In this document: one piece after another, positions 3,172 through 19,937 of the stretch
Numbering within the stretch: position 1 is the first letter of the stretch
How the letters are laid out: every line of letters starts with the position of its first letter
Virus record (IMG/VR): IMGVR_UViG_3300020049_001346
Origin: an uncultured virus (IMG/VR IMGVR_UViG_3300020049_001346)
Lineage: Duplodnaviria; Heunggongvirae; Uroviricota; Caudoviricetes
Strand: one strand, 5' to 3'
DNA length: 20,000 nt
The notes under the pieces: model-generated
Database searches by the model: none
Told to the model about the DNA's origin: nothing
The model's input: the letters and a program-made list of their open reading frames with translations, nothing else
Made by a program: the position numbers and the translations under genes

Positions 3172-3243
3172 AGTCAGGTGGCAGTAATTGGTAACTGCGA
3201 AGCATTATGCATAGAAATACAGGTTCGAATCCTGTCCTGACTA
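3172..3243 (+). tRNA. tRNA-like element lacking a canonical anticodon arm
   Basis: Acceptor AGTCAGG/CCTGACT; D stem GCAG/CTGC with GG in loop; T arm ACAGG-TTCGAAT-CCTGT; only 20 nt between D and T arms and no 5-bp/7-nt anticodon arm. Confidence 0.8.
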
Positions 3244-3264: not shown

Positions 3265-3474
3265 ATGAAAGCAGTAGAATGGTTAGAAGAACAATATTAC
3301 GATTCAGAAGGCAAATTAACAAGACAAGATTTTGAACAAGCCAAAGAAATGGAGAAGCAACAACAAGGATATACTGAATATGAAGTATTAGATATACTAA
3401 AACAGTACGCACTTGAAGAACATTTAATAACATCATCTAAACCTGATGTATGGTTTAAACAATTTAAAAAATGA
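3265..3474 (+). CDS. small modular protein (AVEW...AKEMEKQQQGY..EV...WFKQFKK family)
   Basis: AT-rich; shares blocks with 16705, 17187 and 18643 ORFs. Confidence 0.8.
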   Translation: MKAVEWLEEQYYDSEGKLTRQDFEQAKEMEKQQQGYTEYEVLDILKQYALEEHLITSSKPDVWFKQFKK

Positions 3475-4674: not shown

Positions 4675-5295
4675 ATGAAGAAGTGTACAAAGTGTAATGT
4701 TGAGAGGGAATTAATTGAGTTTAGTAAAGATAGAACTAGAATAGATGGATTATTTCCTCAATGTAAAAAGTGTAAAAAAATTGATGATGATAAATCTTAT
4801 TTAAATAATAAAAATAAAATAATTGCTAAATCTAAAAAATGGAATGAAGAAAATAAAGAAAGAAGAAAGGAATATAGAAGGCAATACAATATAAAAAATA
4901 AAGAAGTAGAAAATCAAAAATGTAGAGAATGGAATAAGTTAAATAGACATAAAGCAAATGAATATTTAAAAAACAGAATATTAAATGACCCTTTATTTAA
5001 ACTTAGTAGTAGTATACGATCTTTAATAAGGACTTCAATGAAAGGTAATGGATACTCAAAAAAAACTAAGACTTACAATATACTAGGATGTACATTTGAA
5101 GAATTTAAAAGTCATCTAGAAAGTCAATTTACCGAAGGAATGACTTGGGAGAATAAAGGTCAATGGCATATGGATCATATATACCCAGTATCATTAGCAA
5201 TAGACGAGGATCATATGATAAAGTTGAATCATTACACAAACTTCCAACCATTGTGGGCAAAAGATAATATAAGTAAATCAAATAAATTAAATTAA
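4675..5295 (+). CDS. free-standing HNH-type (homing-like) endonuclease with N-terminal zinc finger
   Basis: CTKC...DG...CKKC N-terminus; C-terminal LGC...LESQF..GMTWEN..QWHMDHIYP...NHYTNFQPLWAKDNISKSNK HNH motif; strongly AT-rich. Confidence 0.85.
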   Translation: MKKCTKCNVERELIEFSKDRTRIDGLFPQCKKCKKIDDDKSYLNNKNKIIAKSKKWNEENKERRKEYRRQYNIKNKEVENQKCREWNKLNRHKANEYLKNRILNDPLFKLSSSIRSLIRTSMKGNGYSKKTKTYNILGCTFEEFKSHLESQFTEGMTWENKGQWHMDHIYPVSLAIDEDHMIKLNHYTNFQPLWAKDNISKSNKLN

Positions 5296-5299
5296 ACAA

Positions 5300-5872
5300 A
5301 TGGAGAAAATTTTTAAAACATTATCAGAGATTGACATAAAGTCAAAAGTAGAGAAGAAGGGTAGTCAGAACTACCTCAGTTGGGCTAACGCGTGGGGGTT
5401 TGCAAAGCAAATGTATCCATCAATACAACGTATAGTGTACGAGGATCCGTTGACGGGACTTAACTACCTAAACGATGGTAAGACGGGCTATGTGAAGGTT
5501 GGAATTGTAATCGAGGGACTAGAGCACATCGACTACCTACCAATCATGAGCCACAACAACAAGTCAATTGGAATAGATAACATAACATCATTCGAGGTGT
5601 CAAAGACTATCCAAAGGAGCACTGTAAAGGCGTTGGCGCTTCACGGACTAGGCCTTCAGATGTGGAGTGGTGAAGACCTAGTGACAACTACAAAGGTAGA
5701 GAAGCCTTCAGGCCCTCTAGAGTTGACCATAGGTGACGCGAATTGGGACAAGGTCATCAAGTACATCAAGGACAACAAGCACCTTGGATTGGCCACGATA
5801 GTCAAGAACCTTGAGACGAAGTATAAAATTTCAACCGTAATCAAAAAAGAACTTGGGAAATATGTTGGATAG
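5300..5872 (+). CDS. sak: Sak-like (Rad52 fold, DUF1071-type) single-strand annealing protein
   Basis: VEKKG...YLSWANAW, GYVKVGIVI, LPIM..NN, IQRSTVKALALHGLGL motifs; next to exonuclease and SSB. Confidence 0.85.
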   Translation: MEKIFKTLSEIDIKSKVEKKGSQNYLSWANAWGFAKQMYPSIQRIVYEDPLTGLNYLNDGKTGYVKVGIVIEGLEHIDYLPIMSHNNKSIGIDNITSFEVSKTIQRSTVKALALHGLGLQMWSGEDLVTTTKVEKPSGPLELTIGDANWDKVIKYIKDNKHLGLATIVKNLETKYKISTVIKKELGKYVG

Positions 5873-6575
5873 ACTAAGAAATGACAAAGACTACTACGGG
5901 GACTACGGATCGCAGTTCCTAAGTAATAGCGCGGTGGGTGTACTATTAAGTAACCCTAAGATGTTTAAGGTAAAGCAGGAGCCGACGGTTCCTATGCTAC
6001 AAGGTAGCTACTTCCACACGGCCATATTGGAGCCTGAGAAGTTGGCCAACTTTGAGATAGTGGAGGCGAGCACGCGTAACACAAACATATACAAGGACGC
6101 GTCAAAGGGCAACCTGCTCCTGCTAAGGAATGAGTGTGACAACCTTGACGAGATGGTTCGCGTGATCAAGTCGAACTTCTTCTTTTACGAGAACATCTAC
6201 AAGGACGGAAACGTGTACGAGGAGCCCGCCATCATGGAGTTGTTCGGCCACAAGTTCAAGGGCAAGGCAGACATTGTGACAGACGAGATTATTATCGACA
6301 TCAAGACCACGTCAAAGATCTCTGACTTCAGGTGGTCTGCAAAGAAGTACAACTACGACTCGCAGTCATATTTGTATCAGCAATTTTTTGATAAACCCTT
6401 GATTTTCTACGTAATAGATAAGGGTACTCACGAGTTGGGTGTGTTCGAGCCTAGTGCAGAGTTCCTACTAGGAGGTAGAGAGAAGGTGTTGCGTGCGGTT
6501 GAGGTCTACGAAAAGTTCTTTGGAGACAGTCCTAAGGAGGACATAAATAATTTCTTCATAAGGGAAGATTTGTAA
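5862..6575 (+). CDS. PD-(D/E)XK exonuclease (DUF3799/RecE-like)
   Basis: LSNS, GSYFHTAILEPE, EE, KGKAD...IIDIKTT, YDSQSYLY motifs. Confidence 0.85.
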   Translation: MLDRLRNDKDYYGDYGSQFLSNSAVGVLLSNPKMFKVKQEPTVPMLQGSYFHTAILEPEKLANFEIVEASTRNTNIYKDASKGNLLLLRNECDNLDEMVRVIKSNFFFYENIYKDGNVYEEPAIMELFGHKFKGKADIVTDEIIIDIKTTSKISDFRWSAKKYNYDSQSYLYQQFFDKPLIFYVIDKGTHELGVFEPSAEFLLGGREKVLRAVEVYEKFFGDSPKEDINNFFIREDL

Positions 6576-6622: not shown

Positions 6623-6694
6623 TGTTGTATAGTTTAGCGGTAGAATAGGCCTTGTTTAATAGGCTAGACGAGGGTTCGAGTCCCTCTGCAACAT
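6623..6694 (+). tRNA. atypical tRNA with 8-nt anticodon loop (identity undetermined)
   Basis: Acceptor TGTTGTA/TGCAACA; D stem GTTT/GAAT with loop AGCGGTA; anticodon stem GGCCT/AGGCT with loop TGTTTAAT; T arm GAGGG-TTCGAGT-CCCTC; no encoded CCA. Confidence 0.8.
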
Positions 6695-7141: not shown

Positions 7142-7678
7142 ATGAATGAGATTTTAACAAAGGTTTGTTTTAAATGTAATTTAGAAAAAAGTGTTTATGA
7201 TTTTTATAAGCACAAACAAATGGGTGATGGATACTTAGGTAAGTGTAAAGAATGTACAAAAAAAGATTCTAAAAAACAATTACAATTAAATATTTCTACT
7301 CCAGAGGGTCTTGAAAAAGAAAGAAAAAGACATAGAGAAAAGTATTTTAGATTAGATTATAGAGAAAAGCATAAGCCTAGTACTGAAAAAAAGAGATCTA
7401 TAATGAATAGATATAATCTAAAGTATCCAGGAAAAAAAATATGTAAATATCTTTCAAGAAATTTAAAACCAACAACAAAAGGAAACGAACTTCATCATTG
7501 GAATTATAATAGAGAATTTGCAAAAGATACAATAGAACTTAGTATTAAAGATCATAATAAAATACATAGGTTTTTAAAGTATGATTCAAATTTATTTATA
7601 TATATTGATGTTAATGGAAACTTATTAGATACTAAGGATAAGCATTTGTCTTTTATTCTTAAATTAATAGATTTATAA
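7142..7678 (+). CDS. second free-standing zinc-finger/HNH-like endonuclease
   Basis: CFKC...FYKHKQMGDGYLGKCKEC N-terminus; C-terminal LHHWNY...L...DHNKIH; AT-rich. Confidence 0.7.
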   Translation: MNEILTKVCFKCNLEKSVYDFYKHKQMGDGYLGKCKECTKKDSKKQLQLNISTPEGLEKERKRHREKYFRLDYREKHKPSTEKKRSIMNRYNLKYPGKKICKYLSRNLKPTTKGNELHHWNYNREFAKDTIELSIKDHNKIHRFLKYDSNLFIYIDVNGNLLDTKDKHLSFILKLIDL

Positions 7679-10490: not shown

Positions 10491-11673
10491 GGGGGTCAAG
10501 ATACTAAGGGACAAGGGTCTAGTATACCTGTGCATGAGCGTAAGGACGGGCAAGACCGCCACGTCAATGCAGATAGCCAAGTTGTACGGAGCAGACAAGG
10601 TTCTGTTCCTGACAAAGAAGAAGGCCATGGGCGACATACTAAGTGACTACCTAGACTTCGGGTTCAACTTCTCGATAGAGATCATGAACGACGAGTCTAT
10701 GCACAAGTGCCTTGGTCAGTACGACCTTGTTATACACGACGAGCACCACAGGTTCGGAGCCATACCTAAACCTGGAAAGGCCACCAAGACATTCAAGAGG
10801 ATGTTCGGCCACCTGCCGATGGTGTTCCTGTCGGGTACCCCGAGCCCAGAGAACTACAGCCAGCTGTTCCATCAGTACTGGGTATCGCACAGTAGCCCAT
10901 TCAAGAGCTACGTGAACTTCTACAAGTGGGCAAAGGACTACGTGATACCTGGCACCAAGTACACGAGCTACGGGCCTGCACCAGACTACTCCAACGCCAA
11001 GATCGACCTAGTCATGAGTGTGATAGAGACGTACGTTCTAACGTACACGCAGGAGCAGGCAGGCTTTGTATCTGAGATTGAGGAGGAGGTTCTGACAGTT
11101 GACATGAAGCCGTCCACGTACAACCTAGCGAGCAGGCTCAAGAGAGACCTAGTGGTACAGGGTAAGGAGGAGGTCATACTGGCAGACACGGGGGTTAAGT
11201 TGATGCAGAAGCTACACCAGATCTACTCAGGCACGATCAAGTTCGAGTCTGGTAGCAGGATGGTGATAGATGATAGCAAGGCTCTCCATATAATGGAGAA
11301 GTTCAAACATACCAAGATCGGAATATTTTATAAGTTTGTTGCTGAGTTGGATGCACTACGTCAAGTATACGGTGCAGAAAACTTGACAACTGACTTAGAG
11401 GAGTTCAACACCACAGACAAGTCCATAGCGCTACAGATCGTATCTGGTAGGGAGGGGATAAGTTTGAGGAATGCTGAGTTCATAGTGTTCTACAACATAG
11501 ACTTCTCGGCCACGAGTTACTGGCAGGCGAGGGATCGTATGACCACAATGGAGCGTAAGTTCAACAAGGTGTACTGGGTGTTCTCTAAGGGAGGAATAGA
11601 GCAGGACATATACAAGCAGGTACTTAAGAAAAAGAATTTCACATTATCACACTTTAAAATATGTACAGAGTAA
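10447..11673 (+). CDS. SF2 (SNF2/ResIII-like) DNA helicase
   Basis: LRDYQ Q-motif, RTGKT, DEHH, LSGTP, EGISL, QARDR. Confidence 0.9.
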   Translation: MKKTLRDYQSDLAGKGVKILRDKGLVYLCMSVRTGKTATSMQIAKLYGADKVLFLTKKKAMGDILSDYLDFGFNFSIEIMNDESMHKCLGQYDLVIHDEHHRFGAIPKPGKATKTFKRMFGHLPMVFLSGTPSPENYSQLFHQYWVSHSSPFKSYVNFYKWAKDYVIPGTKYTSYGPAPDYSNAKIDLVMSVIETYVLTYTQEQAGFVSEIEEEVLTVDMKPSTYNLASRLKRDLVVQGKEEVILADTGVKLMQKLHQIYSGTIKFESGSRMVIDDSKALHIMEKFKHTKIGIFYKFVAELDALRQVYGAENLTTDLEEFNTTDKSIALQIVSGREGISLRNAEFIVFYNIDFSATSYWQARDRMTTMERKFNKVYWVFSKGGIEQDIYKQVLKKKNFTLSHFKICTE

Positions 11674-11855
11674 AAGAAGTTAACGGAAAGTTTGTGCCTC
11701 AGGTAGGCAATTGGTTTAAGGGATACAGACCAATAGATAGAAAGAGTTCATATCTTTGGACAGATAATTATGAAGTATACTGCGAGTTAGATACACTACA
11801 AGAAGCCTTAGATAGAATTGAAAAGTATAAAATTAAATACCACAAAGTAAAATGA
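11661..11855 (+). CDS. hypothetical protein
   Basis: 64-aa ORF starting an AT-rich island. Confidence 0.7.
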   Translation: MYRVKEVNGKFVPQVGNWFKGYRPIDRKSSYLWTDNYEVYCELDTLQEALDRIEKYKIKYHKVK

Positions 11856-12061
11856 CATTAAAAGATAAATTTCAACAATGGTTCATCAATGATGAAGAAG
11901 ATGAACATTATGAAGGAATGGTAGAACTCGTATCTATCGAACATGAAAAAATAGCAGATGAATTTGCTATTGGATTTGGAGAATTTATGCTTACAAAAGT
12001 ATTTGTAAAAAAATCAGTAACAGAATTATTAGAAATTTATAAAAAAGAAAAAGGATTATGA
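11852..12061 (+). CDS. small hypothetical protein (IADEFAIGF...ELLEIYKKEKGL type)
   Basis: AT-rich, ATGA-coupled at both ends. Confidence 0.75.
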   Translation: MTLKDKFQQWFINDEEDEHYEGMVELVSIEHEKIADEFAIGFGEFMLTKVFVKKSVTELLEIYKKEKGL

Positions 12062-12231
12062 CACCAAAAGAAAAAGCACAAGAGTTAATTGATAAATATG
12101 ATTCAATTTTAACTTATAAATCCAAACAATGTGCATTAGTAGCAGTTGATGAAGTTAGAAATAATTTACCATTAATATCAGATATACAACAATATTGGAT
12201 TGAAGTTAAACGAGAAATAGAGAAATTATGA
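12058..12231 (+). CDS. small hypothetical protein (MTPKEKAQEL...QCALVAVDE...YWIEVKREIEKL)
   Basis: Read by hand, 57 aa, ATGA-coupled. Confidence 0.75.
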   Translation: MTPKEKAQELIDKYDSILTYKSKQCALVAVDEVRNNLPLISDIQQYWIEVKREIEKL

Positions 12232-13141: not shown

Positions 13142-13515
13142 GACAGCTAGTGTACAACTCAGTTACGTGCCTCAGCTGTAAGGAGGTGCTTGTGTCACAC
13201 CACAGGCACGACTACAAGACGTGCGGCTGCGACAACCAGACGATGGTTGACGGAGGAACAGCGTACTCAAGGTACGGTGGTTTAGACCTAAAGAAGGTGA
13301 AACCATTCTTTGTTCACGACGACGATCCATACGAGGAGGTACGAGAGTACGCCGAGAGGGGTGGACGCGGTAAGGACGGGACAGAGCCACTTACATGGGT
13401 GAAGTTGAAGGACATGGACGAGGACTGGCTGTATGCCATACTTGACTACGGAGGCCCAGAGTGGCACATAAATTTAATCAAAAAAGAAATAGACTACAGG
13501 AATGATAATAACTGA
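13138..13515 (+). CDS. phage zinc-binding protein
   Basis: CLSC...S.HRHDYKTCGC...VDGG..Y.R motif. Confidence 0.75.
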   Translation: MRQLVYNSVTCLSCKEVLVSHHRHDYKTCGCDNQTMVDGGTAYSRYGGLDLKKVKPFFVHDDDPYEEVREYAERGGRGKDGTEPLTWVKLKDMDEDWLYAILDYGGPEWHINLIKKEIDYRNDNN

Positions 13516-13590
13516 TAAATGTCCTAATCGTCACCTTACAGAAGGATTCATAAGATGTGATGCGAAACACAAAAAAGTAACAATACTATT

Positions 13591-13818
13591 ATGAAAATAG
13601 ATAAATTAATAGAATTATTAGATGTTGAAGAAGCTATTATAATAGTCAACAAGAAAACTATAGATTCATTTTTTGACAATACAGAAGGTATAAGTGGTGG
13701 ATCTGCTACTTTTGATATGCCAATACACATGGGTGCAAGAGGAATATATAGAAATGGGGTAAACATATATTTTATAGATCAAGAAGATTTAGAAGATATA
13801 AAATTTAAAAAATTATGA
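13591..13818 (+). CDS. hypothetical protein
   Basis: AT-rich 75-aa ORF ending KFKKL. Confidence 0.7.
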   Translation: MKIDKLIELLDVEEAIIIVNKKTIDSFFDNTEGISGGSATFDMPIHMGARGIYRNGVNIYFIDQEDLEDIKFKKL

Positions 13819-14084
13819 TAACAACAACGACGACTAAGGACATAGTGGTGAACGGCCACAAGATAATCAACCCAACCGTCGACACGGTGGTAAGGGCAGT
13901 TAGAAAGGATCTGTTAGACAGATCAAACCTTGGAATAAACAAGTACAACAACACGTTAGACAGGACAGACATAGACCTGAAGGGCTGGCTACAGCATGCG
14001 TACGAGGAGTGCCTAGACCAGGCCAACTATCTAAAGAGAAGTATAATCGAAATAGAGAGAAATGAAAGAGCACAAGATAAGTAA
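13815..14084 (+). CDS. putative all-alpha NTP pyrophosphohydrolase (MazG-like fold)
   Basis: R...GINKYNNTLDR.D...WLQHAYEECLDQANYL, with EExxD metal motif. Confidence 0.55.
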   Translation: MITTTTTKDIVVNGHKIINPTVDTVVRAVRKDLLDRSNLGINKYNNTLDRTDIDLKGWLQHAYEECLDQANYLKRSIIEIERNERAQDK

Positions 14085-14190
14085 GAAGCAGAGGATACTC
14101 ATAGTGATGAAGTACCTGTACTCACGAGGAGCCAACAAGGAGTCTGTCAACGAGGTATACAGAAAGATAATCTGCAAGGCTAATGATTAG
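14062..14190 (+). CDS. hypothetical protein (42 aa)
   Basis: Read by hand; fills gap. Confidence 0.55.
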   Translation: MKEHKISKKQRILIVMKYLYSRGANKESVNEVYRKIICKAND

Positions 14191-14734
14191 TGTAGTAGAC
14201 AACTTCCTTCCAGAGGATGAGTTCAAGTCGTTGCAGGAGTACTGCGACAACAACCTGTTTGAGATAGTTAACTTTTCAGGCAAGTCGTTCTCAGTCCTGA
14301 CTCCACCAAGTAGCATATACAACTACCTGCACATGGACGGTTACGAGATGGTATTGTCATTTGTCAGGAGCGCATACAAGGGGTTCGACACGAGCCTATG
14401 GATACACGCTGACGACATAGTGCAGGGAAAGAAGATAGACATAGCCTCTGTGCTGTATATCAACGACGATGAGGATGTGACCGAGAACGGAACAGCGTTC
14501 TGGAAGCACTACGTGTACGGAAGAACCTTACCAAAGGACTGCACGAACTCAGACTTTGATAAGATACTACTTGAGGATGCCGATAACAGATCCAGTTGGT
14601 TAAAGAAGGACTACATATCGTCAAGGCCGAACAGGATGCTGACTTATGATGCAGATTACTTCCACTCAAAGTATCCAGAGGAGATCACTGAGGGAATAAG
14701 AAAAGTTTTAGTAACATTTTACACAAAGATATAA
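14183..14734 (+). CDS. 2OG-Fe(II) oxygenase (DUF6445-like)
   Basis: VVDNFL, WIHAD (HxD), ASVLYI, GTAFW, NRML.YD..YFHS, RKVLVTF. Confidence 0.8.
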   Translation: MISVVDNFLPEDEFKSLQEYCDNNLFEIVNFSGKSFSVLTPPSSIYNYLHMDGYEMVLSFVRSAYKGFDTSLWIHADDIVQGKKIDIASVLYINDDEDVTENGTAFWKHYVYGRTLPKDCTNSDFDKILLEDADNRSSWLKKDYISSRPNRMLTYDADYFHSKYPEEITEGIRKVLVTFYTKI

Positions 14735-16299
14735 TGGGAAAGTATTCAGAAGAATTTAAAGCGTACATAGGGCTAGCACTAGCTATGGGTCACAACATTA
14801 CACACGCCACAAAGATGGCGTGCATTGAGTTCGGTATCCCTTACGAGGATCAGGTTCGCAGGACAATGTCTAAGCACCTAGAGAGAACTGGAGTAACCGA
14901 TAATAAAGAACTTCCAGAGTCGGACATGTTCCTAGAGGCCCAGAAGAGGGAGCTCGACAAGACCAAGCAGAGGTTCATAGTATCATGGTGCCAGTCTGAC
15001 ACAGAGATACACGAGCAGTTCCTTACAAACATAGAGGCGTACGCCAACGAGATAGATGCAGAGATATCCATCATAGCTGGTAGGTACAAGAACCCTACGT
15101 CACTGAACTCAAGCAAGAGGGTAAAGGAGAAGGAGGAGAGAAACTCGTGGTCGCCAAGGGTAGAGAGGTACCTAGACGCAAACAGGCACAAGGTACACAA
15201 GCACCTGTGTATCCTATCAGACCTTAAAATTCAGCCGACAGCATCAACTCCCCTTTCTGGGATTAACGGCCTCACAGGGCTTGAAAGTTGCGTCGTTGGA
15301 CACCCTAGGGTACACCTTAAGTCCCTGCCAATACTTGACGGTTATCCTCACAAGCTGTTGGTTACTACAGGAGCCATATCGCTACAGAACTACACAGACA
15401 CCAAGTCTGGTAAGAAGGGTGAGTTCCACCACACGCTAGGTTTTGTTATCATAGAGTTGGACGAGGATGACTTCCACATAAGACAGGTTACAGCTGACGA
15501 GGACGGGTCTTTCTATGACCTGCACTACAATGTAATAGCTGGATCCATACGTGAGACAAGCAAGACCGTTATGGTGTTTGGTGACCTCCACCTTGGTGAG
15601 ACAAACGACGATGTTCTTGATGTCTCGTTCAGGATGGCTGAGGACCTGAACTGTGAGGATATAGTACTACACGACGTGTTCAACGGGCACTCCATATCAC
15701 ACCACGAGCGTAACCAACCGTTCCAGGTTATGGCCAGGGAGGAGGACGGATCTGGTGACCTTATGCTGGAGCTAAACAACATGGCCGCGTTCTTTGACAG
15801 GTACTCAGACTTTAACTTTGTGATGGTCAGGAGCAACCACGACGAGTTCTTGGACAGGTGGCTAAACGACGTGGACTGGCGAAAGAGTACCAACAAGAGT
15901 ACCTACCTAGAGCTTGCACATGTGCTTAAGAATGACACCATTGGCAAGGGGATTATCCCTGCTATACTGAATAAGTTCGGTGTAATAAACGTGAACTGCC
16001 TAGGTATAAACGATAGCTTCAGGGTTGCTAACATAGAGTGTGGCGTACACGGACACATAGGAGCCAACGGCAGTCGTGGTGGTGTCATTCAGTTCAAGAA
16101 CTTGAACACCAAGAACATAACTGGTCACACTCATAGTCCTTGTCGTGAGGACGGCCACTCGTCTGTTGGAACCTTGACCCACCTAAGGGTTGGCTACAAC
16201 AAGGGTGCATCTAGCTGGATGAATACTAATGTGGTGATCTACCCTAACGGAAAGTCACAGCACGTACACATCATTAATAATAAATATACCACGTTATGA
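14734..16299 (+). CDS. large calcineurin-like metallophosphoesterase
   Basis: GDLHLG, LHDVFNG, SNHDEFL, GVHGH, TGHTHS motifs in C-terminal half. Confidence 0.85.
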   Translation: MGKYSEEFKAYIGLALAMGHNITHATKMACIEFGIPYEDQVRRTMSKHLERTGVTDNKELPESDMFLEAQKRELDKTKQRFIVSWCQSDTEIHEQFLTNIEAYANEIDAEISIIAGRYKNPTSLNSSKRVKEKEERNSWSPRVERYLDANRHKVHKHLCILSDLKIQPTASTPLSGINGLTGLESCVVGHPRVHLKSLPILDGYPHKLLVTTGAISLQNYTDTKSGKKGEFHHTLGFVIIELDEDDFHIRQVTADEDGSFYDLHYNVIAGSIRETSKTVMVFGDLHLGETNDDVLDVSFRMAEDLNCEDIVLHDVFNGHSISHHERNQPFQVMAREEDGSGDLMLELNNMAAFFDRYSDFNFVMVRSNHDEFLDRWLNDVDWRKSTNKSTYLELAHVLKNDTIGKGIIPAILNKFGVINVNCLGINDSFRVANIECGVHGHIGANGSRGGVIQFKNLNTKNITGHTHSPCREDGHSSVGTLTHLRVGYNKGASSWMNTNVVIYPNGKSQHVHIINNKYTTL

Positions 16300-16514
16300 T
16301 ACTATCAGTAATAGTTTTTTACATAATACCTGCAATACTATCCGTATTCATGATTCTTAATAAACAAAATCAAGCTACAATAGGAGATTTAATAATTATA
16401 ATTTTAGTTTCTCTTTTACCAATAGTTAATTTGTTTAGTGGATATGTAGGTGGATTGATAACCCTATGTAATTCAAAAAAAGTAAATAACTTTTTAAACA
16501 AAAGAATAAAATGA
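16296..16514 (+). CDS. small membrane protein
   Basis: Two hydrophobic segments; AT-rich. Confidence 0.7.
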   Translation: MILSVIVFYIIPAILSVFMILNKQNQATIGDLIIIILVSLLPIVNLFSGYVGGLITLCNSKKVNNFLNKRIK

Positions 16515-16708
16515 AGTACCTACTAGTTCTAATGGCATACGAGTTTATAAGGTCGAAGATGATTTGGCTTTGGTATTATTTAATCAAAAAAAGGACAAGG
16601 AGAATGAGAAATATATTTTTATTTATTTGTAAAATAGTATTTGGATTTTTAACTGGATTTGTATTAATGACTTTAATTTTTGAAATATTAAAACAAATAA
16701 GATTATGA
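16511..16708 (+). CDS. small membrane protein
   Basis: Hydrophobic halves; internal ATG may mark a second module. Confidence 0.6.
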   Translation: MKYLLVLMAYEFIRSKMIWLWYYLIKKRTRRMRNIFLFICKIVFGFLTGFVLMTLIFEILKQIRL

Positions 16709-16902
16709 ATATTCAAGACGAAGTGCAAAAAATCCATCATAAATATGGAACAAGCGAAATGGCAAATTATGAGATACAAAAGTTGTTTGATAAGCAACAA
16801 GAAAGAAGTTATAGTGAGGAAGAAGTTATGAATATAATTGACAGTTTTATAGATAATTTTGATTCAAGAAAAGAGTGGTTTAAACAATTTAAAAAGAAAT
16901 AA
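16705..16902 (+). CDS. small modular protein (QQERSYSEEEV...WFKQFKKK)
   Basis: Shares blocks with 3265 and 18643 ORFs. Confidence 0.8.
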   Translation: MNIQDEVQKIHHKYGTSEMANYEIQKLFDKQQERSYSEEEVMNIIDSFIDNFDSRKEWFKQFKKK

Positions 16903-16903
16903 G

Positions 16904-17185
16904 ATGAGAGAAAAAATAACACCAAAAGAATTTAGAAAAAAAACAATTAAAACTTTCCCAACTATATTTAGAACATGTGTTTTTTTAAGAATATCAAGTA
17001 TTGAAATTATTGACAGAGATATTTGGAAAAATAATCATGATTATGAATATAAAGTTCGTGAGATTAATTTATACAACCCTTTGAGTTATCTTGTATTACT
17101 ATTTCTTATACCTATTGGATTATTGATTGGTGGATTTAACAAAGAAACATTTAAAAGTATTAAACAACTATTTAAAAAGAAATAA
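16904..17185 (+). CDS. small membrane protein ending LFKKK
   Basis: ATG right after junction repeat; NPLSYLVLLFLIPIGLLIGG TM segment. Confidence 0.75.
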   Translation: MREKITPKEFRKKTIKTFPTIFRTCVFLRISSIEIIDRDIWKNNHDYEYKVREINLYNPLSYLVLLFLIPIGLLIGGFNKETFKSIKQLFKKK

Positions 17186-17186
17186 G

Positions 17187-17438
17187 ATGAAAAAAACAGC
17201 AGTAATGTTAATAAGAAATTGGGTAAGAACTAATGGAAATATGAGTGGTGATGGAAAATTTATAGCATATAGTTGTAAAAAACTTGAAAAAGTTATTGCC
17301 CAAGTAATAGAAATGGAAAAGAAACAGATAATCAATGCTTGTAACCAAACAGAGTTTGAAGATATTGATGGAATGGATATCCACGAAACAATAACAAGAG
17401 GAGAACAATATTACAACGAAACATTTTTAAACAAATAA
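17187..17438 (+). CDS. small modular protein (MKKTAV...EMEKKQI...EQYYNETF)
   Basis: ATG right after junction repeat; shared blocks. Confidence 0.8.
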   Translation: MKKTAVMLIRNWVRTNGNMSGDGKFIAYSCKKLEKVIAQVIEMEKKQIINACNQTEFEDIDGMDIHETITRGEQYYNETFLNK

Positions 17439-17439
17439 A

Positions 17440-17607
17440 ATGAAAAAAATAATATACAATATTTCAATTTTTAGGTTTTGGTTTAAATATATATTTTTAA
17501 AAACACCTATGGAAATTGATGTAATAGAATTTATTAAAAAAAATTACAATGCGACTAAAAGAGAACAAAATTTAATTAATAGAGTAAAAAAAATTAACAA
17601 CCTTTAA
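17440..17607 (+). CDS. hypothetical protein (55 aa)
   Basis: Read by hand; stop TAA lies inside the junction repeat. Confidence 0.65.
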   Translation: MKKIIYNISIFRFWFKYIFLKTPMEIDVIEFIKKNYNATKREQNLINRVKKINNL

Positions 17608-17618
17608 AAAGAAATAAT

Positions 17619-17750
17619 ATGAAAACAAAAAATAGTACACCTACTTCGGAGTTTGAAGAAAAAGATAAATGCCCCTCTTGTGGAAGTTATTGCAACATTC
17701 ATACTGATTTAGATGAAAATGATGAATGTAATGATTGTAGACTATGTTAG
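17619..17750 (+). CDS. small Cys-rich zinc-finger peptide (43 aa)
   Basis: Read by hand: CPSC...CNDC. Confidence 0.6.
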   Translation: MKTKNSTPTSEFEEKDKCPSCGSYCNIHTDLDENDECNDCRLC

Positions 17751-18106
17751 TAAAAGCTATTGCAAACGAAAACAATAGAGATGATTTTGCTATTGATTTT
17801 AAAATAGGAGAAGAAATAATTGGAGAATCTACAAGATATTCTCAAAATTATATTTGGTTGGATTTTTGGAATTATAATAAACAAAACCAAATAAAAGATT
17901 TTAAATATGATGATATTTTGTTTGTAAAAACAAAAGTAAAAATAGTAAAAGGCACAATAAAAAGATTACAATGTAATTATTGTGAAAATTATGATAAAGG
18001 TAATGGAACTTGCAAAAGTGAATATTGTCTTTACAAACAAGAAAAAGCAAGTGAACACGAAGATTATTCATTAGTTCAGGATTATTCTTGCGGAGGTTTA
18101 CAATAA
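17744..18106 (+). CDS. hypothetical protein with C-terminal Cys cluster
   Basis: CNYC...C...C...C. Confidence 0.7.
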   Translation: MLVKAIANENNRDDFAIDFKIGEEIIGESTRYSQNYIWLDFWNYNKQNQIKDFKYDDILFVKTKVKIVKGTIKRLQCNYCENYDKGNGTCKSEYCLYKQEKASEHEDYSLVQDYSCGGLQ

Positions 18107-18126
18107 ATTTAAAAAGAAATAAGATT

Positions 18127-18615
18127 ATGACAATTACAATTACTAACAAAGATGGTTCAAACCAAATTAGCAAATTCTCAGAAAATAAAATTAAACATAT
18201 TACCGAAACCAATCAATGGGGGTATGTTATTGAGGCTATTTTAAGAGGTCCAAACAAAGAAAATATGTATAGAGAAAAAGAAATAAACCCGATTGCAAGG
18301 TTAAGTGCTACAGATATTATGGAAGATTGTAAAGAAGAACAAATTACTTTAGAAAAAGGGGTACAAAAGGCGACATTAATTCAACAAACAATTATGTCAC
18401 TAGAAGAAATTAATAGTAGATTATATGGTATTAATAAACGTTTAGAAGATTTAACATTTAAAACTGGTCTATGTAGTGCTGAACCAGATTCTGGTGATAC
18501 ATGTGAATCTGGTGATGATACATATACAACAAGATTACTTAATAATTTAAATACTATTGATACTAGGTTAAATTTTATTACTGATAGGATAACTGATTTA
18601 GAAAAATTTATATAA
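18127..18615 (+). CDS. hypothetical coiled-coil protein
   Basis: ATG after junction repeat; heptad-like C-terminal half. Confidence 0.7.
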   Translation: MTITITNKDGSNQISKFSENKIKHITETNQWGYVIEAILRGPNKENMYREKEINPIARLSATDIMEDCKEEQITLEKGVQKATLIQQTIMSLEEINSRLYGINKRLEDLTFKTGLCSAEPDSGDTCESGDDTYTTRLLNNLNTIDTRLNFITDRITDLEKFI

Positions 18616-18642
18616 GTAATTATGAAAATATCAAATAAAATT

Positions 18643-18888
18643 ATGAAACAAACAGTAGTAGAATTTATATTTGAAGAATTAGAAAATAGACAAAACGGTT
18701 ATCCATATTTTACAATGGAACAAATTTATAATAAAGCTAAAGAAATGGAAAAGGAACAACAAGGTTATAGTCATGAAGAAGTTAAGAGCATTTTATTTGA
18801 ATGGTCAATGTATAAGGTAAGTACAATTATTGAACTTGTTGATGTTATGGATTATGAGAAATGGTTTGAACAATTTAAAAAGATATGA
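18643..18888 (+). CDS. small modular protein (MKQTVVEF...AKEMEKEQQGYSHEEV...WFEQFKK)
   Basis: Paralogue of 3265-3474; alternative start 18622. Confidence 0.8.
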   Translation: MKQTVVEFIFEELENRQNGYPYFTMEQIYNKAKEMEKEQQGYSHEEVKSILFEWSMYKVSTIIELVDVMDYEKWFEQFKKI

Positions 18889-19034
18889 AAGATTCAATTA
18901 AAAAGTGGTGGAATAGAAAATGGGGTAACTGGGAACACATACAAGATTTAACTTATAGTACAGGTGAACTAAGTGGAATTATCATAAAAAGAACATCAAA
19001 CGATGGATTAGTTCAATTTAAAAAAATAAAATGA
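18885..19034 (+). CDS. hypothetical protein (49 aa, ends VQFKKIK)
   Basis: Read by hand; ATGA-coupled at both ends. Confidence 0.65.
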   Translation: MKDSIKKWWNRKWGNWEHIQDLTYSTGELSGIIIKRTSNDGLVQFKKIK

Positions 19035-19273
19035 AAGCAAAGCTAGAGTTTAAATTACCAGAACAACAGATGGAGTTCTACAGGTCTATAAAGTCATTTG
19101 ATATGGCCTGTGCATTGTTTGATATACTACAACTTCGTAAGAAGGTAGAGAGACAGTGCGAGAACATAGCCTATAACACCGCTGACATATTTGACGGCAT
19201 CCAGTTTATGGCTAATGGAATTGGAGAGATACTTGAGGAACACGACATTAACATTGATAAACTGATAGAATGA
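19031..19273 (+). CDS. hypothetical phage protein (MKAKLEFKLPE...)
   Basis: 80-aa ORF. Confidence 0.75.
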   Translation: MKAKLEFKLPEQQMEFYRSIKSFDMACALFDILQLRKKVERQCENIAYNTADIFDGIQFMANGIGEILEEHDINIDKLIE

Positions 19274-19569
19274 AAAAATTATTAAGTAAGATCGGTAGGT
19301 TTCTTATAAAACAAAATGAAGAAGCCATAGAGGAAGAGTACTACATGCCAAAACTATTTGGAGAGAGTAAGTCGGTTGAATACGAAATTGATGGAATGAC
19401 AAAGTCCTTCTGTAAATTAACTCAGTGGGCAAATGGAGAGGGCTATGATGTAAGTTTCGAAAGTGAAGTCAGTAAAGGAAGGTGGGAGAATAAAAGAATT
19501 GAACTTCATACAGACGAACTAGAAACATTCTTTGCTTGTTTAAACCACTTTAAATACTTTGGAAAATGA
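19270..19569 (+). CDS. hypothetical protein
   Basis: 99-aa ORF, ATGA-coupled. Confidence 0.7.
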   Translation: MKKLLSKIGRFLIKQNEEAIEEEYYMPKLFGESKSVEYEIDGMTKSFCKLTQWANGEGYDVSFESEVSKGRWENKRIELHTDELETFFACLNHFKYFGK

Positions 19570-19937
19570 AACCAATTCACAAACTAAATGGAGGTAATGG
19601 AGCAACACTTTGTAATCGCTGTAGTAAGATTATAGCCACTGGATTTACTGATGATCTATACTGTAGCCAAGAGTACAAACTAGTAAGAGAAGGAGACGGA
19701 CTGACAAAACAGTCTCAGGATGTTATGTGGCTAGAGTTTGATGAGAACGGTAAGTTCAAAGCAAAGCACAAGGACATAGCTGTAGGAAGAAGCCTACTGA
19801 TGTCTCCATTCAGTCAGTTCTTTACCTGGCAGACGACAGACATAAAAGAGATTATAGAACAAAGAGAAGATTATATTAAATTCAAAACAACAAACTCAAT
19901 ATACGAATTATATGAAAAAGCAGATATTTGTAGATGA
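19566..19937 (+). CDS. hypothetical protein with N-terminal CxxC module
   Basis: KLNGGNGATLCNRC N-terminus plus beta-rich C-terminal domain. Confidence 0.7.
   Translation: MKPIHKLNGGNGATLCNRCSKIIATGFTDDLYCSQEYKLVREGDGLTKQSQDVMWLEFDENGKFKAKHKDIAVGRSLLMSPFSQFFTWQTTDIKEIIEQREDYIKFKTTNSIYELYEKADICR

Follow-up and report, generated by a model that had tools for sequence, protein, structure and literature searches.

The window, i.e. the whole stretch of 20,000 nucleotides that was analysed, contains between positions 16296 and 19034 an array of very small genes with a G + C content of 17–31% in a genome of 47% G + C; all features described below lie on the plus strand. On its left side the array is flanked by a gene for a T5 A1-like 'DNA transfer protein' (14734..16299; phrog_1745, E = 1.6e-144), which belongs to the conserved core, has a G + C content of about 47% and is kept in all of the relatives L004-L011 and L333-L342. 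Its right flank is a conserved gene for 80 amino acids (19031..19273), which in distant relatives directly adjoins the A1-like gene.

The leftmost cassette (16296..16514) is a single gene of 23% G + C coding for 72 amino acids, hydrophobic as judged by eye, which is inserted ATGA-to-ATGA and carries at its 3' end a tail resembling the motif described below, immediately 5' of the next ATG. It is missing in L004, L005, L007, L008, L334 and L337, where the stop/ATGA of the A1-like gene continues into the homologue of 16511, and a 51%-identical homologue is found elsewhere in L340. The left border ORF (16511..16708) is a fusion of a conserved mini-ORF of 30–31 amino acids ('MKYLLVL...') with the first array gene (ATG at 16604) that is due to an additional A in the run that ends at 16586, and contigs of the runs X3 and X4 have one A fewer at this place. 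There follow a cassette of the '...QERSYSEEEV...WFKQFKKK' family (16705..16902; 97 tblastn matches in the retrieved loci), a cassette of 93 amino acids with the motif in its tail ...IKQLFKKK and no family in searches with its translation (16904..17185), and a cassette assigned by its translation and its homologues in relatives to the '...EMEKKQ...YYNETF-x-x-K' family (17187..17438), the homologues in L008 and L337 ending in YYNETFKKK with the exact motif. The next cassette (17440..17607; 55 amino acids, 17% G + C) has a 67% homologue in L103 that sits immediately 3' of a canonical motif copy. It is succeeded by a two-gene cassette travelling as a unit (17619..18106), in which the genes for a CxxC mini-protein of 43 amino acids (17619-17750) and a Cys-rich protein of 120 amino acids (17744-18106) overlap at the start of the latter. 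A contig of 3,648 nt from run X2 contains window positions 17619-18130 with three differences in 512 nt, its remainder not being found on the stretch; this cassette thus occurs there in another context, with its ends at the ATG after the third exact motif copy and just beyond the fourth. In addition, the gene at 17619-17750, which the motif precedes in the window, has an 88% amino acid homologue in L022 that lacks the motif at its 5' end and has it at its 3' end instead. The array is completed by a cassette of 162 amino acids for which family and homologue searches found neither a family nor a relative (18127..18615), by a cassette ending in ...WFEQFKKI that an alignment places in the WFEQFKK family and that falls into virus-only Atlas clusters without a family (18622..18888), and by a cassette of 49 amino acids common to L004 and L337, though in a different order in the latter (18885..19034).

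With respect to the relationships of these genes, the first-pass annotation had taken most genes between the motif copies to be unrelated, which is right for the majority but not for the paralogues at 16705-16902 and 18622-18888, which together with a distant one at 3265-3474 all end in WF(K/E)QFKK, the gene at 17187-17438 representing a related family. In an alignment of 20 members of the '...SYSEEEV...WFEQFKKK' family, amongst them the window genes starting at 16705, 18622 and 3265, the residues W, Q, F, K and K are invariant, and membership is marked by a conserved Y-S-E-E-E block and a C-terminal W-F-x-Q-F-K-K. The family matches no Pfam or PHROG family, and a literature search found no paper with the peptide.

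Four exact copies of the 15-mer TTTAAAAAGAAATAA are present in the window, all on the plus strand and 1–4 nt 5' of an ATG, in the very places where the first-pass annotation had put them. Copies 1 (16888..16902) and 2 (17171..17185) are translated as F-K-K-K-stop, each being separated by a single G from the following ATG (16904 and 17187, respectively), and have 20 identical nucleotides in common (families D1 and D2). At copy 3 (17603..17617) the upstream gene ends ...N-L-stop on the TAA formed by motif bases 3-5, and a T precedes the ATG at 17619, while copy 4 (18108..18122) begins 2 nt past the upstream TAA (18104-18106), is wholly non-coding and is followed by GATT and the ATG at 18127. The four copies accordingly exhibit three reading situations, a frame-1 stop, a frame-3 stop and no coding at all, which bears out the reading frames claimed for them. 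Exact identity between copies extends over 15–20 nt only. No copy is expected by chance, as none of 200 dinucleotide-preserving shuffles of the window had any, and when up to three mismatches are allowed the number of matches is 17, compared to 3.1 ± 1.7 expected; enrichment over shuffled sequence had been proposed as a check. Amongst these matches are all the variants previously noted near 16688, 17425, 18874, 19017 and, far away, 3463. The variant at 16686..16700 (three mismatches, a C allele of the F-K-N-K type, family D6) lies 4 nt 5' of the ATG at 16705, and that at 17424..17438 (three mismatches, D11) 1 nt 5' of the ATG at 17440. The variant at 18874..18888, with two mismatches in the scan, is shorter than the canonical form and overlaps the ATG at 18885 (ATGA), and in the homologous place L004 and L025 have the canonical motif and a contig of run X4 has seven extra letters. 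The variant at 19017..19031 (three mismatches) forms the right border of the array, the breakpoint 19030/19031 lying at the ATG of the conserved flanking gene.

The 15-mer is the core of a stop/start junction of about 22–30 nt that is typical of low-GC phage mini-genes, hereafter called the linker, with a consensus of roughly AACAA, then TTTAAAAA(G/C)AAATAA, then 1–4 nt and ATGA or ATGAAA. Its frame 1 encodes the F-K-K-K-stop tail conserved at the C-termini of the "…SYSEEEV…WFEQFKKK" and "…YYNETFKKK" families, and a second frame, frame 3, contains a TAA; upstream of copies 3 and 4 the sequence resembles the AACAA block of the family with small insertions and deletions. The motif is local: the nearest record, G001 (44 kb), which is identical to window positions 14000-17009 over the aligned part and has 83% of the window's sampled words in common with it, contains a single copy at up to one mismatch, corresponding to that at 16888.

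In line with the cassette-like, hypervariable array that had been proposed, gene order at this locus is not conserved in close relatives, eight architectures being found in ten close genomes (nine informative contigs and the window). The site is empty in L010, L011 and L340, where the A1-like gene adjoins the 19031 homologue directly, and L009 has three other low-GC genes there. All breakpoints are located at start codons, such as the ATGA at 16604-16607 that forms the left breakpoint of the array with respect to L005 and L334, and insertions are flanked by the repeats ATGA, ATGAAAG, ATGAAAGCA or ATGATAA; the locus is thus hyperplastic with breakpoints that are precise to the start codon. At several borders of gain or loss the motif is present, either in full or truncated. 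Others, however, namely the borders A1/16296 and 16604 and the right-hand border of the insertion in L008, are plain ATGA overlaps without it, and therefore the motif is not needed for clean gain or loss.

An all-against-all comparison of 219 loci showed that 33 of 104 tight small-gene junctions with the motif are breakpoints, compared to 80 of 522 others, and 20 of 60 versus 48 of 320 in the central, unique, low-GC subset (odds ratio 2.8, p = 0.0015). At motif junctions, alignments entering from upstream broke in 67 cases and crossed in 33, in contrast to 130 and 276, respectively, at the others. The rate at which motif junctions coincide with homology breakpoints is thus two to three times that of other tight junctions, in counts that are not independent, as the loci were chosen for the motif or a WFEQFKK gene and the family is multi-copy, and that are affected by paralogue-to-paralogue alignments, which necessarily end at the gene end. 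Of the earlier proposal that breakpoints lie at the motif, the part concerning start codons and junctions, several with the motif and with an excess at motif junctions, is consequently upheld, but the plain ATGA overlaps do not conform to it.

The motif is under constraint at the nucleotide level, and what is preserved is the nucleic acid as well as the peptide, as had been claimed before; this follows from codon skew and from the out-of-frame and non-coding copies. Amongst 70 unique instances retrieved with a degenerate back-translation of the peptide WF[EK]QFKK, 45 contain the exact 15-mer, and the second lysine codon of the tail is AAG in 64, compared to 13% (133 of 1,017) in the bodies of the same ORFs. 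AAA-AAG-AAA is used for 58 of 65 C-terminal KKK (unbiased cases) but only for 23 of 76 internal ones, although homopolymer avoidance accounts for part of this preference, all-AAA being found in only 7 of the 76 internal KKK and middle-AAG already being the commonest pattern there. An 18-mer form of the motif has 116 unique contexts in viral contigs, of which 105 have an ATG at +1, +3 or +4 and 89 are in frame with at least 30 open codons; counted with wider margins, 27 of 115 are not the end of an ORF of at least 30 codons, and one of these copies sits immediately 3' of a tRNA 3' end. The commonest tail is WFEQFKKK (28 of 115), but unrelated proteins, amongst others a 336-aa ORF and tiny hydrophobic proteins, also end in the motif. 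In bacterial genomes, in contrast, an ATG is found at +1, +3 or +4 in only 36 of 116 contexts, and CAA immediately 5' of the 18-mer occurs in 1 of 116, as opposed to 71 of 116 viral contexts. The linker is spread over more than 100 phage contigs of 4 to 320 kb with very different size and backbone, and the phages using it have Bacteroidota-type hosts without Shine-Dalgarno sites.

The spacing TAA + 1 nt + ATG puts adenines at positions -3, -6, -12 and -13 of the next ATG, and both the motif with 1 nt and the motif with GATT before the ATG have A at all four of these positions, which favour initiation in Flavobacterium johnsoniae according to Baez et al. (2019; PMC6847099). All four adenines are present at 5 of 12 array starts, compared to 3 of the 41 other window starts, none of the 53 gene starts of the window has a Shine-Dalgarno-like core, and the four junctions fold no better than shuffled sequences (z = -0.12, -0.71, +0.84 and +1.65). 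The first-pass annotation had named an A-rich, SD-less initiation region as the alternative to its own reading, and these data lend support to it; judged by adenines, lack of SD cores and low structure the linker is a putative initiation region of the Bacteroidia type, although position -3 is a G and not an A in those 26 of 115 viral contexts that have the +3 spacing, which counts against this assignment. When all frames are considered, a stop triplet occurs between 9 nt 5' of the gene and its fourth base at 12 of 12 array starts and 32 of 41 others, i.e. the array starts have the stop/start proximity of translationally coupled gene pairs and may be coupled. Between 15800 and 19600 no terminator-like site was found, and promoter-like sites show no excess (27 versus 22.8 ± 4.3 in shuffles) by the sigma-70 consensus, which is not that of Bacteroidota. 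Part of the stretch is contained in 20 runs, none of which is on record as RNA.

Elsewhere in the window, the distant paralogue (3265..3474), which ends in ...WFKQFKK and carries the junction variant at 3463, is located in another low-GC islet just 3' of a tRNA gene. A second low-GC island of three mini-genes (11660..12227; 27.8% G + C) and a third island (13509..13814; 27.1% G + C) are absent from L004 and L005, the former being cut out ATG-to-ATG and the latter having a direct repeat of 7 nt on either side, at two start codons, and ending 3' in an F-K-K-L-stop junction of the same type as the array linker. Genes for a Sak-like single-strand annealing protein (5300-5872; phrog_659, E = 1.9e-40) and an exonuclease (5862-6575; phrog_412, E = 1.7e-27) constitute, by these matches, a candidate recombination machinery (5300..6575).

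Taken together, we consider it probable, at roughly 60%, that the linker is a stop/start joint of AT-rich mini-genes that serves translation and at the same time offers a landing site for crossovers between cassettes. Read in frame 1 it would provide the last codons and the stop of the upstream gene (F-K-K/N-K-stop), and its second TAA, in frame 3, would close upstream genes arriving in that frame, so that an upstream gene in either frame is closed while the third frame is that of the next ATG. It might further act as an unstructured, adenine-rich initiation region for the next gene and presumably drives initiation there, which would allow a polycistronic early transcript to be translated onward from gene to gene. 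Each cassette would extend from its own ATG through a linker-type tail, and its insertion or removal precisely at a start codon already present would therefore not silence the neighbour. The near-identical tails (15–30 nt, often with ATGAAA) would be landing points for crossovers between cassettes or phages; such crossovers may be driven by homology at the motif and may be performed by the phage's own Sak/exonuclease pair. Against homology as the driving force counts that the exact repeats of 15–20 nt are shorter than the minimal pairing segment of 23–27 bp given for Red-beta (De Paepe et al. 2014, PMC3945230). The cassette reading and the A-rich, SD-less initiation reading are compatible, and our view merges both. 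The original observation is confirmed and its interpretation supported in part, i.e. for the array, the constraint and the breakpoints but not for the integron-like label. The linker marks sites at which accessory genes are gained, lost or swapped, and it recurs in more than 100 other phages.

That the linker is a translation signal only, an optimised SD-less initiation or coupling region without a part in recombination, appears rather unlikely. Cassette movement would then be due to illegitimate or microhomology events at any place, and selection would keep those products that fall at gene borders. This would be consistent with the four favourable adenines, the unstructured junctions, the lack of SD-like cores at all 53 starts and the clean ATGA-to-ATGA borders without the motif, and also with repeats that fall short of the Red-beta segment (PMC3945230). 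However, a need for adenines fails to explain why the T's and the single G are identical letter for letter across more than 100 otherwise unrelated contigs, bacterial genomes including those of Bacteroidota do not use the sequence in this way, phage core genes lack it (one copy at up to one mismatch in the 44 kb of G001), and the two- to threefold breakage at motif junctions would not be expected. It is improbable that the motif is simply the FKKK C-terminus of one expanded family in an AT-rich codon dialect, with the window copies being paralogues or decayed remains, even if the majority of viral contexts are in frame, no tail is commoner than WFEQFKKK, three window genes are paralogous and the AACAA-like block with its small indels 5' of copies 3 and 4 fits decayed ends. 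Both AAG comparisons, with gene bodies and with internal KKK, speak against it, as do letter-perfect copies that are out of frame, non-coding or behind a tRNA, the unrelated proteins sharing the ending, and the ATG at most 4 nt downstream in 105 of 116 contexts.

Little probability is likewise given to a recognition site that a phage-encoded regulator would bind or cut, for which T4 RegA, which represses translation from many early start regions, may serve as an example, or to an RNA-level signal, a phage promoter or a site of RNA processing. To our knowledge the linker is unlike Bacteroidota promoter boxes, which counts against a promoter. The exact conservation of an asymmetric motif on one strand only and its restriction to early accessory genes and absence from hosts would suit such a site, and the same arguments left a binding factor open for the mycobacteriophage sequences discussed below (PMC3203893). 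Yet the motif ends 1–4 nt from the ATG, leaving no leader, no candidate regulator was identified, and one shared factor would need a wide distribution, given phages of 4–320 kb with very different backbones. A dedicated recombinase acting on the linker as an attC-like site is close to refuted, although the units of the array consist of one gene each, share one orientation and have a boundary that is repeated: DNA folding of the four junctions ± 28 nt yields -0.5 to -3.4 kcal/mol, no better than shuffles, none of the four inverted repeat pairs in 16200-19300 is at a junction, borders shift by a few nucleotides and differ in sequence, and the motif is translated. Nor was a tyrosine recombinase found in G001 (PF00589, 0 matches, with the control matched in 14 of 14 genomes), which is 73% complete by the record's estimate, so that its absence is not proven, or in PHROG scans of 26 window proteins, with the last ~3 kb and the unsequenced rest of the genome outside this family search. 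It is finally very hard to believe that the low-GC blocks are assembly chimeras joined at a short repeat. Contigs do break in or beside the array (G001 at about 17010 of the window, L338 just past the border ORF, L025 inside a cassette), but all joints are in phase and at start codons, a repeat of 15–20 nt is below the usual assembly word size, G001 is identical for the other islands and the array start, and contigs of other runs bridge copy 2 (X4, 17066-17216, no differences) and copy 4 (X2, 17619-18130).

Integrons are arrays of single promoterless genes in one orientation, with a repeated attC boundary that folds as a hairpin and is used by the integrase IntI. The label integron-like holds as an analogy only, namely for the single-orientation array of one-gene units with a repeated boundary; here the junctions do not fold like attC and contain no inverted repeat, no tyrosine recombinase was found in G001, and the exact phosphodiester bond differs between borders. 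Boundary or 'linker' sequences at gene borders are assumed in the modular theory of phage evolution. Together with the relaxed recombination by Rad52-like phage recombinases, the idea is that short border sequences and annealing proteins (cf. the Sak gene at 5300-5872) generate mosaics at gene boundaries, although the experiments reported used homologies of hundreds of bp (PMC3945230) and exact repeats here are mostly below 23–27 bp.

The promoter-early stem-loop (PeSL) cassettes of T4-type phages (Arbiol et al. 2010, PMC2839356) are likewise short conserved elements repeated between small ORFan genes in hyperplastic regions. Genes differing between close relatives adjoin the element there as well as here, apart from some borders without the motif, and PeSLs were proposed to steer recombination to harmless intergenic sites and to bring expression signals (PMC2839356). 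However, a PeSL is a transcriptional element of about 100 bp comprising a sigma-70-like promoter and a terminator hairpin (PMC2839356), a combination not found in 15800-19600 by the sigma-70 consensus, which differs from that of Bacteroidota, whereas the present element has 15–30 nt and no hairpin. In contrast to PeSLs, the linker extends over the stop codon and is in part translated, and any effect it has would be on translation. PeSLs are also the subject of Comeau et al. 2014 (PMC4122927). Mini-circles are described for PeSLs, while the runs compared here consist of contigs from mixed communities.

With Bacteroidia initiation regions (PMC6847099) the linker has the adenines at -3, -6, -12 and -13, low structure and the lack of SD pairing in common, but the rule reported there is a statistical preference for A, whereas the phage linker is one fixed word that hosts do not use in this manner. 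The start-associated sequences (SAS) of Cluster K mycobacteriophages (Pope et al. 2011, PMC3203893) are asymmetric 13-bp repeats on one strand, located a few nucleotides 5' of the ATG in non-structural genes from various families; they sometimes include the upstream stop codon and are virtually absent from host genomes, and the role in translation initiation suspected for them is described as unproven. As a one-strand repeat near the ATG of non-structural genes belonging to different families that is rare in hosts, the linker belongs to the same type. SAS, however, contain a Shine-Dalgarno core and are described from one phage cluster (PMC3203893), whereas the linker has a different sequence without such a core, doubles as a conserved C-terminal peptide, is found in more than 100 contigs of very different size and coincides with the borders of cassettes.

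The exact 15-mer TTTAAAAAGAAATAA, here called the linker, lies on the + strand at 16888, 17171, 17603 and 18108 (copies 1 to 4), just where the first-pass annotation had placed it, and not a single copy occurs in any of 200 dinucleotide-preserving shuffles. With up to three mismatches allowed, there are 17 matches where 3.1 ± 1.7 would be expected, and all variants named in that annotation are among them. The linker is a real feature. The three reading situations described for it were borne out by read-out of the DNA and translation of the ORFs: copies 1 and 2 are read F-K-K-K-stop, the TAA at motif bases 3-5 of copy 3 is the stop codon of the upstream gene, and copy 4 is untranslated and begins 2 bases past the upstream stop. 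The next ATG follows after 1, 1, 1 and 4 nt, respectively. Identity extends beyond the 15 nt, with 20 bases shared between copies 1 and 2, and an AACAA block is located 0-3 nt upstream of the motif in all four copies. Two frames of the motif contain a TAA (at bases 3-5 and at bases 13-15); the third is that of the ATG behind copies 1-3.

A search of viral contigs with an exact 18-mer (motif + GAT) yielded at least 121 stretches. Among the matches listed, the 18-mer is followed by an ATG at +1, +3 or +4 in 105 of 116 unique viral contexts, and the motif forms the in-frame end of an ORF of at least 30 codons in 88 of 115; the other 27 include copies that start directly after another TAA and one that immediately follows a tRNA gene. 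The commonest upstream tail, WFEQFKKK (28/115 among the matches listed), belongs to a large, unnamed, modular family of the form '...ETLEEAAE...GAKWQQERSYSEEEV...WFEQFKKK', of which the window holds members at 16705-16902, 18622-18888 and 3265-3474, and a second tail family, YYNETFKKK, is represented at 17187-17438. The same 15-base end is also found on unrelated proteins, such as one encoded by a 336-aa ORF and several that are tiny and hydrophobic, and the genes downstream of the linker are diverse, 79 of 99 being without a recognisable start type and 83 of 99 coding for 30-120 aa. In one genome per species from 185,579 prokaryotic species, which served as control, copies of the 18-mer are scattered across AT-rich taxa, with an ATG at +1, +3 or +4 in only 36 of 116 contexts and CAA immediately upstream in 1 of 116, compared to 71 of 116 viral contexts among the matches listed. 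Since the prokaryotic copies thus mostly lack the ATG or the upstream CAA, the linker is a word of phages and not of their hosts. On the minus strand of L022, a viral locus, a row of mini-genes (about 650-2300, reverse complement) shows five joints read F-K-N-K-stop and followed after 1-4 nt by an ATG; this is the C allele of the linker, also present at 16686 and 17424 of the window. In the literature searched, no paper with the peptides WFEQFKKK, FEQFKKK, QFKKK or YYNETF and no description of a comparable linker in Flavobacterium-type phages was found.

The proposal that the motif is kept as nucleic acid is upheld by the out-of-frame and untranslated copies and by a skewed choice of C-terminal lysine codons. 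To obtain a sample unbiased at synonymous sites, the peptide WF[EK]QFKK was searched with fully degenerate codons, resulting in 437 stretches, of which 334 were confirmed and the best 80 of 334 used. In the 70 unique instances of these best 80, the first lysine codon is AAA in 69 and the second AAG in 64, as opposed to 13% AAG (133/1,017) in the bodies of the same ORFs; the stop codon is TAA in 49 and TAG in 11, and the 15-mer is intact in 45. As the sampled genes are only 34-60% identical in protein sequence (with the exception of L253, at 100%), synonymous sites elsewhere in them must long have been randomised. The preference for AAG is partly explained by the avoidance of a run of nine A's, as internal KKK is all-AAA in only 7 of 76 cases and AAA-AAG-AAA is its commonest form (23/76). 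AAA-AAG-AAA is still far more frequent at the C-terminus (58/65; Fisher's exact test, p = 4e-13, a value that overstates independence because the instances share ancestry).

The window represents an early or replication region of a phage genome. All genes lie on the + strand, and PHROG matches were obtained for a Sak-like annealing protein and an exonuclease (the Sak/exonuclease pair, 5300-6575), for a helicase and a primase-like protein, and for a T5 A1-like 'DNA transfer protein' (A1, 14734-16299). A near-identity search of the whole window against 50,697 phage records gave no match, and the sole match in a distant search with 16200-19400 comprises 69 nt (79.7% identity) at the 3' end of A1 in Flavobacterium phage vB_FspP_elemoC_14-1A (listed under two accessions), a match too small to name a host. 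While the G + C content of the core genes is about 47%, that of the array at 16296-19034, which consists of twelve small genes, is 17-31%. None of the twelve has a PHROG match or a Pfam match reaching the family cut-off, and neither PHROG nor Pfam assigned a function to any of the 14 genes lying between 16296 and 19937 or to the cassettes of relatives, every Pfam match being below cut-off. In an Atlas look-up, 18622-18885 fell into virus-only clusters without a family; neither relatives of the 162-aa cassette 18127-18615 nor a 24-mer from gene 17744-18106 were found in viral contigs. The 55-aa gene 17440-17607 (17% G + C) might be a remnant of a GIY-YIG domain, to whose end it is weakly similar (E 0.009, below cut-off).

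Elsewhere in the window, two free-standing HNH/endonuclease VII-like genes of 23-25% G + C (4675-5295 and 7142-7678; phrog_1035 and phrog_2340) were observed; the latter is absent from the related loci L004 and L005, where 21-61 nt replace some 625-664 nt, and is probably a mobile homing endonuclease. Rfam indicates tRNA genes at 3172-3243 and 6623-6694 (38.4 and 50.7 bits), the first located just upstream of the WFKQFKK paralogue 3265-3474, and ARAGORN reports only the second, with an odd two-base anticodon call. The genes at 3471, 7832 and 13815 share their first nine bases, which encode Met-Ile-Thr, and two of the three border on low-GC islets.

A Shine-Dalgarno-like core was found at none of 53 gene starts in the window, and the regions upstream of these starts are adenine-rich, which is the pattern of Bacteroidota phages. 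According to PMC6847099, adenines at -3, -6, -12 and -13 are positive determinants of initiation in F. johnsoniae, and their mutation lowers reporter output. The arrangements 'motif + 1 nt + ATG' and 'motif + GATT + ATG' place an A at all four positions, while the +3 spacing has a G at -3; all four adenines are present at 5 of 12 array starts and 3 of 41 other starts in the window. The four junctions are no more folded than shuffled sequences (z about -0.7 to +1.7), and there are no terminator-like sites in 15800-19600. The adenine positions, the missing Shine-Dalgarno-like cores and the low structure lend support to the alternative offered in the first-pass annotation, according to which the motif would be an A-rich initiation region, and the array fits a single transcript that would be translated gene after gene. 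The 20 sequencing runs that carry small shares of the window (at most 0.13) include none on record as RNA.

Relatives of the locus were fetched via the A1 protein from viral contigs and metagenomes, and their comparison agrees with the expectation that gene order varies and that the borders of gain and loss coincide with start codons: the locus is HYPERPLASTIC, with breakpoints at start codons. In a distant group (A1 about 69% identical), an ATGA overlap joins A1 directly to the homologue of the conserved right-flank gene at 19031 in L010, L011 and L340, and in L009 three different low-GC genes lie between the two. Among the closer relatives (87-99% protein identity in A1), eight architectures are found in nine informative contigs and the window, L338 and L339 being left out of this count as they end too early. 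L005 and L334 carry only a 30-aa border ORF, to which one WFEQFKKK cassette and an 18885 homologue are added in L004, and one YYNETFKKK cassette and one mini-gene in L008; L006 has a 251-aa ORF together with a duplicate of the A1 3' end, and in L337 this ORF is accompanied by the border ORF, an 18885 homologue, one cassette of the YYNETFKKK type and one further gene. Replacements lacking 19031 are seen in L333 and L336, which share one form, and in L007, which has another; the window has twelve genes. Two more distant phages (L052 and L025) have the same flanks, yet other cassettes.

All readable borders are located at start codons, with short direct repeats (ATGA, ATGAAAG or ATGAAAGCA) on either side, and inserted blocks extend from their own ATG to an A-rich tail ending just before the resident ATG, e.g., the variant at 19017, the tail of 16296-16514 or the truncated linker in L337. 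Two low-GC islands, 11660-12227 (27.8% G + C, three mini-genes) and 13509-13814 (27.1%, two mini-genes), are missing from L004 and L005, and both ends of each coincide precisely with start codons; the second island has the 7-nt direct repeat ATGATAA at both sides and ends in an F-K-K-L-stop junction. The 43-aa gene 17619-17750 has the motif upstream in the window, and its homologue in L022 (88% protein identity) has it downstream, with nucleotide homology from the ATG to a few bases short of the stop codon; in addition, a 3,648-nt contig of sequencing run X2 contains window 17619-18130, i.e., from the ATG behind copy 3 to a few bases beyond the ATG behind copy 4, with three differences, its remainder lying off the window. 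By these comparisons, the motif is a property of junctions and not of particular genes.

At 16580-16586 the window has seven A's instead of the six seen in relatives and in contigs of runs X3 and X4, which fuses the 30-aa border ORF in frame with the next mini-gene (ATG 16604) and may be a homopolymer-length polymorphism or an error. The 251-aa ORF (25% G + C; L006:1768-2523 and L337:2243-2998) lies directly after A1 and is accompanied by a second, partial A1 3' end; such an arrangement is what a homing endonuclease would be expected to leave behind, and by eye the ORF has a GIY...YIG-like start. No endonuclease family was assigned to it by Pfam or PHROGs, which gave only phrog_15526 of unknown function. 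Three independent contigs stop in or beside the array, namely the nearest phage record, G001 (at window position ~17010), L338 and L025, which would fit strain or population heterogeneity breaking assemblies.

For a quantitative comparison, 219 viral and metagenome loci (880 kb) were aligned all against all (at least 80% identity over at least 80 nt), and an alignment end within 12 nt of a start codon was taken as a breakpoint. At tight junctions between genes of at most 150 aa, breakpoints were found at 33 of 104 with and 80 of 522 without the motif; here and in the figures that follow, the counts are of sequences and not of events, in loci chosen for carrying the motif or the WFEQFKK family. 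When only junctions with unique contexts, a local G + C content below 33% and a distance of over 600 nt to the locus ends are considered, the figures are 20/60 and 48/320 (odds ratio 2.8, p = 0.0015). Where a homologue adjoins such a small, tight junction, 67 alignments arriving from upstream break and 33 cross at the motif, compared to 130 and 276 elsewhere, and at least some break is seen at 37 of 46 motif and 87 of 168 other junctions; because the WFEQFKK family is multi-copy, some of the breaks in all these comparisons are from paralogue to paralogue. Alignment ends cluster at -5 to +14 when arriving from upstream and at -35 to -16 when arriving from downstream, i.e., alignments extend across the linker that both partners share and end where it ends. 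These data give moderate support to the view that motif junctions would be preferred as breakpoints.

Most joints in contigs of four sequencing runs have sides shorter than 30 nt, linking SYSEEE and WFEQFKK blocks or two motif copies; they were not counted as deletions and probably derive from other phages sharing these modules. Likewise, a backward joint from 18881 to 18638 (depth 2.8) was rejected as a circle, as it reflects two family members in tandem elsewhere. In one X2 contig, 19031 directly follows the 3' end of A1; because this contig also skips 92 nt within A1, it may represent an L006-type duplicate and not a true empty site.

We consider it reasonably probable (about 0.6) that the linker would act as a dual-use stop/start adaptor at which cassette-changing crossovers succeed. 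It would close the upstream gene in two frames and supply the start region of the next, and since all cassettes of the gene pool carry it, crossovers that add, remove or swap cassettes would succeed there; these might be driven by homology, possibly with the participation of the Sak/exonuclease pair. What the data themselves show is the linker's anatomy, its nucleotide-level constraint and its spread, the plasticity of the locus and the excess of breakpoints at motif junctions. Two observations count against a strong recombination role, namely that the exact repeats, at 15-20 nt, are shorter than the minimal pairing segment of 23-27 bp quoted for Red-beta in PMC3945230, and that several clean borders lack the motif. 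Both favour the main rival, in which the linker still serves translation but the clean borders result from selection acting on microhomology joins; we regard it as unlikely, though worth serious consideration.

Conservation of the peptide only is improbable in view of the C-terminal excess of AAA-AAG-AAA over internal KKK, and a factor-binding or RNA signal is held to be equally improbable. Neither a hairpin nor an inverted repeat at the junctions nor a tyrosine recombinase in the incomplete 44-kb G001 could be found, which speaks against an attC-like site, makes the integron-like array originally suggested an analogy only, and leaves a site-specific system with hardly any probability. An assembly artefact is just as implausible, as every joint is in phase, the beginning of the array and the other islands are present in identical form in G001, and contigs from other runs bridge copy 2 (no differences) and copy 4 (three differences).

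Extending the adaptor reading, the linker might be a pool-wide universal adaptor kept by selection, through which unrelated Bacteroidota phages would exchange mini-genes by annealing-protein-driven linker-linker crossovers, possibly via excised linker-bearing circles; as a cassette would carry with it the start region for its neighbour, expression of every insertion would be immediate. This extension is rather doubtful.

The turnover of accessory genes in phages (ORFans, candidates for host takeover and anti-defence) is very rapid, and it is an old open question whether neat mosaic borders stem from selection after random joins or from short linker homologies. In the present case, one translated word is letter-identical in more than 100 uncultured phages, constrained at the nucleotide level and located at cassette borders, which makes the linker hypothesis directly testable in a host group (Bacteroidota) with experimentally worked-out start rules. 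The linker also flags hyperplastic regions and the true start codons of mini-genes in phage genomes with which gene callers do badly, and in the engineering of such phages it might be used, as it stands, for insertion and as an adaptor for expression.

With respect to known systems, the linker is alike in logic to the PeSLs of T4-type phages (PMC2839356) and alike in position to the start-associated sequences of Cluster K mycobacteriophages (PMC3203893). It belongs to neither class, since the promoter and terminator of a PeSL and the consensus with Shine-Dalgarno core of a start-associated sequence were both looked for and are missing; a PeSL is ruled out by the lack of a terminator in 15800-19600 and of an excess of sigma-70 promoters, whose consensus is not that of Bacteroidota. 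If the universal-adaptor extension were true, the linker would be a functional analogue of the integron that needs neither integrase nor attC and is made of a translated stop/start signal.
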